Assembly (NCBI GenBank): GCA_046483795.1
Contig: JAWOCM010000091.1
Coordinates: 1-64,000, forward strand
From: Desulfuromonadales bacterium
Lineage (GTDB): Bacteria; Desulfobacterota; Desulfuromonadia; Desulfuromonadales; JAWOCM01
Reading direction: 5' to 3'
DNA length: 64,000 nt
Shown here: piece after piece, positions 14,861 through 17,373 of the stretch
Layout of the letters: each line of letters starts with the position of its first letter
Position numbering within the stretch: the first letter of the stretch is position 1
Made by a program: the position numbers and the translations under genes
Notes under the pieces: generated by a model
What the model was told of the DNA's origin: nothing
Databases searched by the model: none
Seen by the model: only the letters and a program-made list of their open reading frames with translations

Positions 14861-17373
14861 AAGCTGTTATCATGGCCGGCGGATTCGGCACCCGGATCCA
14901 GCCGCTGACCATCAACCTGCCCAAGCCGATGATTCCCCTGATAAACAAGCCGATCATGCTGCATATCATCGAGCTGCTCAAAAAGCACGGCATCACCGAT
15001 CTGGTGCTGCTTCTCTATCACCAGCCGATGAGCATCAAGAGTTACTTCCGCGACGGCAGCGACTTCGGAGTGAGCATCACCTATATCACACCGCTGGAGG
15101 ATTATGGAACCGCCGGAGCGGTCAAAGCCGCTGCCCAGCATCTCGATGAGCCGTTCCTGATCATCAGCGGCGACCTTCTCACCGATTTCGACCTTGGAAA
15201 GCTGGTGGATTTCCACCAGAGCAACAATGCACGGGCCACCATGACTCTCACCAGAGTTGCAGATCCATTGCAGTTCGGCGTCGTCATCACCGATACCGAC
15301 CACAAGGTCACCAAGTTCCTGGAAAAACCGGGCTGGGGAGAAGTTTTCTCGGACACCATCAACACCGGAATCTATCTTCTGGACCCGGAGGTGCTCGAGC
15401 TGATCCCCGAAGAAGAGAACAAAGACTGGTCGAAAGACATCTTTCCGATGATGCTCGAACAGGGCATGGACCTTTACGGCTGTTTGCTCGACGGCTACTG
15501 GCAGGATATCGGCAACCCCCAGGCCTACCTGGAAGCCTGCCGTGATGTCCTCACGGAAAAGGTCGATCTCGAGCTGGACGAGAAAAGAGAGCCGAGGGAC
15601 GACTGCCGGCTTCATTTGGGACACGACACCTTTCTGGCGCCTCCGGATCGGTTGCAGGGCACGGTCGTGATCGGAGAGAACAGCAACATCCTCGGACCGG
15701 TGCGTCTGTCCGACTGCGTGATCGGTCGCAACTGCGTCATCGAGGAGGGGGTCGAGCTTCAGGGAGCCATCCTCTGGGATAACGTCTACGTGAAAAAGGG
15801 CGCCCGTGTCGGCAATGCGGTCCTGTGCCACAACACAGGGGTGGGTGCCAAGGCCAGAATCGGCGACGGTGCGGTGATCGCCGACGAATCCCGGGTCGGA
15901 GACGATGCCGAAGTCAACAAGGGCATCCTTGTTTGGCCGCGCAAGGAGATCGAAGAAGGTGCGACGGTGACCACAAACGTCATCTGGGGCGAGAAGTGGC
16001 GCAAGAGCATTTTTGAAGGGGCGGTGGTCCGCGGCCTGAGCAACATGGAACTGACTCCCGAGTTTGCAGCCAAGCTGGGCGCCGCATTCGGCTCGACCCT
16101 GCCAAAAGATTCTGTCGTACTGGGCGGGCGCGATTCCTGCCGAGCCTCGCGGATGCTCAAGAGATCCTTCGTCGGCGGCCTGCTCTCCACCGGGATCAGT
16201 GTTCGCGACTGCAAGATGGTGCCTCTTCCGGTGATGACCTACAAGATGCAGACCTTCGGGGAGCTCGGTGGCGTCTACTTCCGTCAGTGTCCTGATGATC
16301 CGGCAACGACCGAAATCATCTTTTTCGACGACGAAGGGATGGAGATCTCCTCTTCGACCTCCAAGGGGATCGAACGGCTCTTCTTCAAGGAGAATTTCCG
16401 GCGGGCACACTACAACGAGCCCGGGACCATCCTTGAACTGCCCCAGTTGCATGACTTTTACCGCGACGGCTTTCTGCGCTCTCTGGAACAGGATCGCCTG
16501 CGGCAGGACAGACCGCGGGTGGTCATCGATCTCAACCACTCGCCCGCAGCCATGATCCTGCCCGCCCTTCTAGGCAGCCTCGGATTCCGTATGACCGAAC
16601 TCAACTCTTTTATCGACTCCAGTCGCTCCGAAGGAACTCCCAACGTCGAGAACCGGACTCTGGAGGAGCTTTCCCGGATCGTGGTGACTCTCGGCGCCCA
16701 GGCCGGTTTCTGGATCAGCCCCTCCGGAGACCGCCTTGTGGCTGTCGACGACACCGGCCGAATTCTGAGCGACCTCGACATGCTCGGCAGTTTGACCGCC
16801 CTGATCTGCCGACAATACGAGAAGGGGTCCCTGGCGTTGCCGGTATCAAGTCCGACAGTGGTCGAAGAGCTGGCGCAACCCGCAGGACTCGAGGTGGTGC
16901 GCACCCGACTCGACAATCGAGCCCTCCTTGAGAAGGCCCGGCGCCACGGCTGCCGCCTGTCCGCTTCCACTGACGGGCGTTTCGCCATTCCGCTCTTTCA
17001 GTACCATTTCGATGCCCTCTTTACCGTCGCCTATCTGCTGCAACTTCTGTCCGCAAGCGACATGTCCCTTTCCGAGGTCGTGGGTATCCTGCCGAAAAAA
17101 TCCTACCGTCACCTTAAGACGCCCTGTCCTCTCGACAGCAAGGGGAGGGTCATGCGCAAGATGACGGAGGCCGCAGCCGATAAGGATGCATCCTTCATCG
17201 ACGGTGTGAGGATTCAGTTCGAAAACAAATGGGTCCTGATTCTTCCCGACCCCTATCGACCCATTGTTCATGTTGTCGCCGAAGCGGGCGATGACGAAAC
17301 GGCATATGAACTGGCCCGGGATTATTGCAGCCGTGTCGACAACTGGAAAATCAGCGCTCTGCCGAACAGCTAG
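14857..17373 (+). CDS. Sugar-1-phosphate nucleotidyltransferase + left-handed beta-helix + phosphohexomutase-like domain fusion (838 aa)
   Basis: Track ORF 14704..17373; ATG 14857 is used. The N-terminus [28 protein letters not shown] and [20 protein letters not shown] are NTP-transferase motifs. Hexapeptide repeats span about residues 300-385. The C-terminal half aligns by eye to the PGM/PMM fold but lacks its catalytic motifs (see findings). Confidence 0.85.
   Translation: [838 protein letters not shown]

Follow-up and report, generated by a model that had tools for sequence, protein, structure and literature searches.

In bacteria, GlgC usually catalyzes the step at which glycogen synthesis is committed and regulated. 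In the group made up of GlgC and its dead paralogues, which include GlgD and the large subunit of the plant ADP-glucose pyrophosphorylase (AGPase), a live catalytic unit is paired with a dead partner that is kept by selection. Inactive proteins also control a nucleotidyltransferase in the case of GMPPA and KONJAC (7d72, 8yre). The phosphohexomutase fold itself has been kept for a non-catalytic role in PGM5/aciculin (6y8x-6y8z), an inactive vertebrate paralogue, while the complex of GlmM with CdaA (7olh, 9g69) shows that this fold is able to act as a protein-binding regulator of a nucleotide-handling enzyme. Here we describe a gene located at positions 14857..17373 on the + strand of a 64,000-nucleotide stretch of DNA from a Desulfuromonadales bacterium (contig JAWOCM010000091.1 of assembly GCA_046483795.1, positions 1 to 64,000), which is called the window below. 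The gene is predicted to encode an intact sugar-1-phosphate nucleotidyltransferase with a left-handed beta-helix (LbH; residues 1-360), fused to a complete four-domain phosphohexomutase fold (residues 386-838), the catalytic loops of which have been replaced.

The comparison of this fusion protein with the described systems shows both likenesses and differences. The fusion shares with GlgC and its dead paralogues the pathway position by glgA and the architecture of a transferase followed by an LbH. On the other hand, the sequence of the fusion does not place it in GlgC (117 bits vs 425), and its dead partner comes from the family of the enzyme of the preceding pathway step and is located in cis, while theirs is a paralogous subunit. 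The closest functional analogy for the role proposed here is provided by GMPPA and KONJAC, which, however, are dead nucleotidyltransferase paralogues acting in trans, whereas the fusion has a mutase fold in the same chain, the role of which we infer. PGM5 is found among the fold matches of the C-terminal half, but it keeps most of the signature loops, is a stand-alone cytoskeletal protein and belongs to the PGM1 subgroup, in contrast to the fusion domain, which belongs to the phosphomannomutase/phosphoglucomutase (PMM/PGM) subgroup and has lost all the loops. GlmM differs in that its mutase activity has been retained and its target, a diadenylate cyclase, is regulated in trans. The arrangement seen in the fusion is a known kind, a pseudoenzyme partner of a nucleotidyltransferase, in a new form, in which the dead unit derives from the preceding pathway enzyme and is present in cis.

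Fold and catalytic loops of the C-terminal half

The long open reading frame spans 14704..17373, while the biological start is the ATG at 14857, which is located behind the ribosome-binding site GAGAGGGGG. The protein is 100% identical to a protein from a Desulfuromonadales metagenome-assembled genome that is named 'mannose-1-phosphate guanyltransferase'. The features of the gene are as follows.

14857..17373, + strand: fusion gene, 838 amino acids (nucleotidyltransferase, LbH and predicted catalytically dead phosphohexomutase fold), from Pfam and PDB matches
14857..15552, + strand: sugar-1-phosphate nucleotidyltransferase domain, residues 1-232 (PF00483 at 187 bits)
15646..15915, + strand: LbH of the eIF2B-epsilon/GMPPB type, residues 264-353 (PF25084, 74.6 bits; a short beta-strand ladder in the model)
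16012..16401, + strand: mutase-like domain I, residues 386-515 (PF02878 at 75 bits, profile positions 4-137 of 138)
16456..16758, + strand: mutase-like domain II, residues 534-634 (PF02879 at 55 bits)
16816..17082, + strand: mutase-like domain III, residues 654-742 (PF02880 at 22.8 bits, a weak match; predicted local distance difference test, pLDDT, >90)
17092..17370, + strand: mutase-like domain IV, residues 746-838 (no PF00408 match; alignment to residue 818 and a confident model superposing on PGM/PMM)
16279..16302, + strand: former phosphoserine loop FRQCPDDP (TASHNP replaced by R476 Q477 C478 P479 D480 D481; near-family consensus FRQSPEDP)
16717..16734, + strand: former metal loop SPSGDR (DGDADR replaced by S621 P622 S623 G624 D625 R626)
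16960..16980, + strand: former sugar-binding loop SASTDGR (GGEENGG replaced by S702 A703 S704 T705 D706 G707 R708)
17242..17262, + strand: former phosphate-binding loop LPDPYRP (RASGTEP replaced by L796 P797 D798 P799 Y800 R801 P802; L-P-D is a family signature)

The equivalence of the motifs was determined by a phmmer comparison against all PDB sequences, using the archaeal PGM/PMMs 9du5 (Thermococcus kodakarensis), 1wqa (Pyrococcus horikoshii) and 2f7l (Sulfolobus tokodaii) as references. Residues 389-818 were colinear with the whole chains of these proteins (E 1e-45 to 1e-52), and because the alignment runs from end to end, the loop equivalences are fixed. At the phosphoserine loop C478 occupies the Ser position, with P, D and D in place of His, Asn and Pro, and the conserved Lys downstream is replaced by I488. 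The metal loop has lost the first two Asp ligands, but it keeps the third Asp and the Arg (D625 and R626). Pfam assigned domains I to III, while no match to PF00408, the profile of domain IV, was obtained even at E<=1. The fusion shares with the archaeal enzymes the four-domain fold, with 27% identity over ~455 columns, and such core motifs as GRD, FFKE(D/N)F(R/D)R, an Asp in domain III, and the W-V-L that precedes the final loop. It differs from them in the missing phosphoserine loop, Lys, Mg2+ loop, sugar loop and phosphate loop, as well as in the placement of the mutase fold behind a nucleotidyltransferase and in the lack of Pfam detection of domain IV.

An AlphaFold2 model, which was built on 78 relatives, gave pLDDT values mostly of 80-96 over the mutase-like half (386-838). 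The geometry between the domains is uncertain in this model, as the predicted template modeling (TM) score (pTM) was 0.60 and the linker 360-383 had pLDDT <50. When the model was compared with 9du5 and 1wqa using Foldseek, the target-normalized TM scores were 0.86-0.87 over ~455 columns. A first-pass annotation of this DNA had proposed, by eye, that residues 386-838 form the four-domain fold with all four signature loops replaced. Both points were borne out by the Pfam, phmmer and Foldseek results; residue 386 does correspond to position 16012, the three loops quoted there lie exactly where they had been placed, and the sugar loop, which had not been found, is SASTDGR at residues 702-708. Neither the phmmer alignment nor a regular-expression scan placed a Ser-His-Asn-Pro or DxDxDR loop elsewhere in the sequence, and the scan detected no SH, D.D.D, R.S..EP or TASH-like string elsewhere in the protein or in the other frames of the region.

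These data indicate that the C-terminal half has a complete fold, as predicted by the model, from which the catalytic apparatus is absent. By fold it is a member of the alpha-D-phosphohexomutase superfamily, but by none of the tested enzymatic criteria is it a phosphohexomutase, as it has no canonical phosphoserine loop with its Lys, no D-x-D-x-D-R, no sugar loop and no R-x-S-x-T-E-P loop. The loss of the Ser-His dyad and of the metal, sugar and phosphate loops means that the domain should not interconvert glucose-6-phosphate and glucose-1-phosphate by the mechanism of the family.

Loss of motifs across the fusion family and selection on the mutase-like domain

The replacement of the loops is also seen in the relatives of the window protein. 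There are ~120 relatives of equal length at 58-63% identity, and their loops are conserved among themselves, reading FRQSPEDP, GPSGE(R/K), MDGRF and LPDQHRP. Gly (97%) and Ser (98%) occupy the first two metal-Asp positions in this near family. The His-Asn-Pro context and the Lys are always gone from these proteins, but the Ser itself is not always gone, as it is present at the nucleophile position in 86% of the close relatives, while the window protein has Cys. This C478 (16288..16290) is off-consensus, although Geoalkalibacter halelectricus also has Cys there. The window protein is off-consensus also at T461 (16237..16239), where 89% of the 150 representatives introduced below have Arg. A recent decay or a sequencing artefact was considered as well, and it was ruled out by the same replaced loops in a 94%-identical relative and in the ~60%-identical ones.

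When 1.84 billion cluster representatives were searched exhaustively using HMMER, 150 full-length fusions with 31-57% identity were identified; the clusters that they represent belong to Dadabacteria/Ignavibacteriales, Acidobacteria, Calditrichota, cyanobacteria, Clostridia and Thermoprotei. The canonical phosphoserine loop was found in none of these 150 representatives, and D-x-D-x-D-R was kept in just two of them. The sugar loop was gapped or variable in one third, while L-P-D was present at the phosphate loop nearly everywhere (P797 in 136/150 and D798 in 113/150). A second search, seeded with an archaeal representative, recovered ~117 further fusions, from Bathyarchaeia, Thermoprotei, Methanomethylicota, Lokiarchaeia, Helarchaeota and others. 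The archaeal branch mostly keeps the metal loop (Asp 98/80/74%, Arg 74%), and likewise the Glu of the sugar loop, but it never has the Ser-His dyad: Leu (44%) or Pro (21%) takes the place of the Ser, and Glu (45%) that of the His. In the archaeal fusions the loops read DGDADR and GGEExGG, with a partial phosphate loop HPSSEEP, and a sequence of the RIHEID type stands where TASHNP would be expected. Overall, a TASHN-like loop with Ser-His was present in none of 450 full-length fusions, which cover Desulfuromonadales, Bacillota, cyanobacteria, Acidobacteria and TACK/Asgard archaea. Where a metal site is present the Ser is missing, and the Ser-bearing members, the window clade among them, have no metal site.

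The alignments indicate that the motif loss is common to the whole fusion family and not special to the window gene. The fact that the archaeal members retain the metal and sugar loops suggests that the decay was stepwise, and it makes the archaeal fusions candidates for an intermediate state, which would be binding-competent but dead for turnover. As a separate observation, some fusions, of ~950 amino acids, bear an extra C-terminal DUF5752 (PF19027), which also occurs in the glycogen locus of Bathyarchaeia as a stand-alone gene (14910..15455 in locus L086) and, faintly, on a GH57 protein.

The variation at the nucleophile position bears on the explanation that the domain is still an enzyme, which would work by a non-canonical mechanism, for example with C478/S478 as the nucleophile, so that the protein would be bifunctional as in KEGG-style names. 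This would fit the Ser or Cys found at this position in the close relatives, the predicted preservation of the fold and the cleft, the strong purifying selection on the domain described below, and the annotation by JGI, which names the family bifunctional. However, such an enzyme would have to act without the His, Asn and Lys, without two of the three Mg2+ ligands and the sugar-loop Glu, and also without the distal-phosphate loop that is needed to bind and reorient the bisphosphate intermediate. Across the 150 representatives the residue at the Ser position varies (S 41%, then D and A), which is unlike a nucleophile, in Archaea it is mostly L or P, and the metal site and the Ser are never kept together in one member. 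Hence, this explanation is very improbable.

The selection acting on the domain was estimated from one pair of sequences, the window gene and its 94%-identical relative (locus L084), with dS of 0.35. The ratio dN/dS was 0.10 for the mutase-like half, 0.05-0.06 for its domains I-II, and 0.06 for the transferase. The value of 0.10 indicates that the mutase-like domain is maintained rather than decaying. Across the 150 representatives the mean conservation of the mutase-like domain was 0.38 vs 0.63 for the transferase, and this lower conservation, together with the loss of all catalytic motifs, would agree with a functionless evolutionary remnant, which is tolerated since its removal would destabilize the transferase. 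Against this stand the dN/dS values, the presence of all four domains at full length in the 450 proteins of distant phyla, the absence of truncated lineages from the best matches, and the new family-specific invariant motifs L-P-D and C..K-G..M-R. The remnant explanation is accordingly unlikely. Other family-specific conserved positions, which are W377, R461, P662, C757, K762, G763 and R767, and also P797 and D798, lie outside the old motifs. It is well supported by these comparisons that the mutase-like half is a pseudoenzyme domain, that is, an enzyme homologue that has lost its catalytic residues and is under purifying selection. The first-pass annotation had called it a likely pseudoenzyme, and the missing elements of the mechanism, the complete fold, the low dN/dS and the retention across bacterial and archaeal phyla all agree with this.

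The nucleotidyltransferase half and the glycogen operon

The Pfam NTP_transferase profile matched residues 2-232 of the N-terminal half. The features of PF00483 proteins are all present there, including the G-loop GGxGTR(L/I)xPLT, the following Lys, GD, EKP and the Asp of the second Mg2+. The motifs G8 G9 x G11 T12 R13 .. P16 L17 T18, K23, G105 D106, E156 K157 P158 and D217 x G219 are invariant across the 78 relatives, as expected from the earlier statement that this half is intact. These observations support the view that the pyrophosphorylase half looks live at the level of motifs. When the N-terminal 360 residues were compared with the GDP-mannose pyrophosphorylases (VTC1 7x8j, Leishmania 7whr and human GMPPB 7d72) and with the CugP-type UDP-glucose pyrophosphorylase tlr0611 (8x7s), they aligned over the full length with E values from 1e-44 to 1e-56, and for the N-terminal domain against 7x8j, 7whr and 8x7s the values were 1e-53 to 1e-56. 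The fusion has all the catalytic motifs and the LbH tail of these enzymes, and one of its segments is of the length of the CugP version. It is different from them in having 450 extra C-terminal residues, in its location in a glgA operon and not in a GDP-mannose or cell-wall context, and in scoring below every curated equivalog cutoff. The score was 252 bits vs a cutoff of 440 for NF052502 (GDP-mannose pyrophosphorylase), and 117 bits vs 425 for TIGR02091 (GlgC). The N-terminal half is placed by these profiles in PF00483 as a nucleotidyltransferase, without assignment to the GDP-mannose, UDP-glucose or ADP-glucose subfamily. Because it scores below every equivalog cutoff, the substrate of the transferase is deduced from the genomic context alone.

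The fusion gene belongs to an operon of four genes, and no convincing terminator was found between them. The other features of the operon are listed below.

14242..14271, + strand: sigma-70-like promoter match, a possible operon promoter upstream of the receiver gene (consensus match only, 9/12 hexamer positions)
14471..14860, + strand: stand-alone CheY-like response-regulator receiver, 129 amino acids (PF00072 at 69.5 bits)
17398..20709, + strand: GH13-like protein, 1103 amino acids, a conserved operon partner with weak alpha-amylase/pullulanase similarity
20798..22405, + strand: glycogen synthase GlgA, GT5 (PF08323 at 288 bits; TIGR02095 at 574 bits vs a cutoff of 328)

The conservation of this neighborhood was analyzed in 83 related loci of Desulfuromonadales, Geobacteraceae and Geomonas; the 80 best loci of a scan with a four-sequence alignment were all from Desulfuromonadales. 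The context in other phyla was examined in three individual loci, from Bathyarchaeia, Bacillota and Staphylothermus. Of the 58 loci that extend far enough, 57 encode GlgA on the strand of the fusion gene and no more than 9 kb downstream of it, and 45 have the gene of the GH13-like protein downstream on that strand. The latter gene begins 24 bases past the fusion gene, and its product has a 31-bit alpha-amylase match (residues 338-431), similarity to PDB pullulanases with E ~1e-4, and ~300 residues at each end without a domain assignment. No second nucleotidyltransferase or mutase was found within 10 kb in the 83 loci or in the 64-kb window. By context, then, the fusion is a functional analogue of GlgC, being encoded with glgA and being the sole nucleotidyltransferase of the glycogen cluster within this distance. 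Regarding the proposal that the fusion replaces GlgC-type regulation, the data agree with its occupying the glgC position, in the glgA operon and with no other nucleotidyltransferase nearby, within the 10 kb covered around the loci. It has been reported that Geobacter sulfurreducens accumulates glycogen (PMC10424081), and that archaeal GT5 synthases take ADP-, UDP- or GDP-glucose (PMC11046441).

The gene order in the Bathyarchaeia locus is GDE, GH57, fusion, GT5, ..., GalT-like, GT5, while in the Bacillota locus it is GT5, fusion and two GH57 branching enzymes. The link of the fusion to glycogen genes predates the gene order of Desulfuromonadales. Genes for GH57 proteins of the branching-enzyme type and for GalT-like proteins (PF01087) recur beside the fusion in Syntrophotaleaceae, Bathyarchaeia and Bacillota (12610..15870 in locus L002, 6223..7791 and 12379..13443 in L086, and 10494..15460 in L087). 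This recurrence places the fusion in a glycogen cluster of the GT5/GH57 type and not in the classical glgBXCAP set. Among the other neighbors in the window, an AraC-family regulator (13685..14104, - strand) is divergent from the operon and is also present in the 94%-identical relative; the promoter match lies in the intergenic region between this gene and the operon. The trkA-trkH potassium uptake genes (23038..25835, + strand) follow the glycogen operon, as in ~30 related loci, which is probably plain synteny.

In 63 of 69 related loci a receiver gene immediately precedes the fusion gene in the same orientation. In the window the two genes share 4 bases (ATGA), which hold the TGA stop of the receiver gene and the ATG start of the fusion gene. 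The receiver has the residues D8 D9, D52, T80 and the conserved Lys in the segment AYVVKSS. The synteny and the overlap suggest that two-component signaling may feed into glycogen synthesis at the level of the protein. This offers a regulatory input that rivals the one in the first-pass annotation, in which the receiver did not appear. In this explanation the dead domain would be a protein-protein module, used for oligomerization of the transferase and/or for docking of a partner, notably the CheY-like receiver, so that phosphorylation signaling would control the supply of NDP-glucose (NDP, nucleoside diphosphate); GlgA or the GH13-like protein are other possible partners. Besides the translational coupling and synteny of the receiver gene, this explanation is in agreement with the behavior of the archaeal PGM/PMMs and GlmM, which oligomerize via the same fold, and with the binding and inhibition of the cyclase CdaA by GlmM, the structures of which (7olh, 9g69) are among the fold matches. 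It also agrees with the family-specific residues outside the old motifs from W377 to R767, and with the conservation being spread over the domain and not focused on the cleft. On the other hand, the association with a receiver was seen just in Desulfuromonadales, while the domain is much older and is also present without an adjacent receiver, and the geometry between the domains is uncertain in the model. We regard a role as a protein-protein module as possible, at a probability clearly below one half.

Proposed role of the fusion protein and its implications

Taken together, the data make it moderately probable that the fusion protein is an NDP-glucose pyrophosphorylase, of a type other than GlgC, which serves glycogen synthesis and contains a selected, non-catalytic module of the mutase fold with a regulatory or structural function. 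The transferase would be an NDP-hexose, most likely NDP-glucose, pyrophosphorylase that feeds the GT5 glycogen synthase encoded downstream, so that the NDP-glucose used by GlgA would be its product. The C-terminal 450 residues would derive from an archaeal-type phosphoglucomutase/phosphomannomutase, which was fused to the transferase long ago. The Ser-His dyad would have been lost before the spread of the family, and the Mg2+ ligands, the sugar loop and the distal-phosphate loop later, in the bacterial branch. The dead domain would most likely serve as an in-cis regulatory and assembly domain controlling the transferase, in this way being a counterpart of the dead paralogues acting in trans, which are GlgD, the large subunit of plant AGPase, GMPPA and KONJAC. 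Its input could be a small phosphorylated metabolite in the remodeled cleft or the co-translated CheY-like receiver. What we infer is the specificity for sugar and nucleotide, the regulatory or assembly role and the identity of the input.

Several observations weigh against the proposal that the fusion is such a regulated NDP-glucose pyrophosphorylase. The transferase is under every NCBIfam equivalog cutoff, as described above, and the fusion of Staphylothermus has no glycogen-gene neighbors. Full-text literature searches returned no publication on the fusion architecture or its dead mutase domain, and there was no solved full-length structure of the fusion among the PDB sequences. The former active-site loops had a conservation of 0.86-0.88 in the close relatives, where the domain mean was 0.78, and 20-50% of windows of equal length were as conserved as these loops. 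Across the 150 representatives the loops were at or under the domain mean. In real mutases, the equivalents of these loops are the most conserved parts. The average conservation of the former loops indicates that the cleft is not singled out as a functional surface.

The last result concerns the suggestion that the dead domain is an allosteric sugar-phosphate sensor, in which a hexose phosphate or bisphosphate bound in the old cleft would signal to the transferase, replacing the effector control of the GlgC type. In agreement with such a role, the cleft-forming four-domain fold is predicted to be intact, and basic residues are kept at ligand-contact positions in the close relatives (R476 100%, R/K626 98%, K/R684 100%, R708 92% and R801 88%). 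Moreover, in the archaeal fusions the metal and sugar loops and a portion of the phosphate loop are present and just the dyad is missing, the pattern expected of a binder without turnover. The enzyme also acts at the point where the classical pathway to glycogen is under allosteric control, with no GlgC nearby. However, every canonical ligand-contacting residue is changed in the window clade, the loops do not exceed the remainder of the domain in conservation, the Ser loop being below average family-wide, and one third of the representatives have gaps or variation in the sugar loop. Since the former active-site loops are not unusually conserved, the sensor is not taken as the best explanation. 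An allosteric sensor, as put forward in the first-pass annotation, is a possible but rather doubtful role, for which the average conservation of the loops and the replaced ligand contacts of the window clade left no specific support. Of the mechanistic versions, the protein-protein module ranks slightly ahead of the sensor, and a third version combines the two.

A more far-reaching form of the proposal can be put forward only tentatively. In this form, the fusion family, with proteins of ~830 residues, would be the so far unrecognized GlgC-independent NDP-glucose pyrophosphorylase of the GT5/GH57 clusters of Desulfuromonadales, Bacillota and TACK/Asgard archaea, and glycogen synthesis would be gated by the dead domain, acting as a receptor in cis. 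The receptor would first have been a binder of hexose (bis)phosphate without turnover, a state visible in archaea, and would have been rewired in Desulfuromonadales to the remodeled cleft and/or to the CheY-like receiver. If this were true, glycogen synthesis would be under direct two-component control at the protein level.

The findings also concern the naming of these proteins. Members of the family appear in databases as 'mannose-1-phosphate guanylyltransferase/phosphomannomutase' or as 'phosphoglucomutase', and the 'phosphomannomutase' half of such a name is almost certainly wrong. Thousands of entries so named are probably misnamed, which misleads the metabolic reconstruction of Geobacter-type bacteria and uncultured archaea. 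Archaeal glycogen metabolism, including its source of nucleotide sugars, was described as largely unexplored in a 2024 review of prokaryotic alpha-glucan enzymes (section 3.4, PMC11046441), and the fusion architecture is not mentioned in that review. If this is true, the glycogen step would be controlled in a new way, by a widespread alternative enzyme to which a dead, selectively maintained copy of the enzyme acting just before it in the pathway is attached. The fusion would also be a clean case of the reuse of an enzyme domain, in cis, as a non-catalytic module, and the stepwise decay, with the dyad lost everywhere and the metal, sugar and phosphate loops later, would provide a natural series for the evolution of pseudoenzymes.

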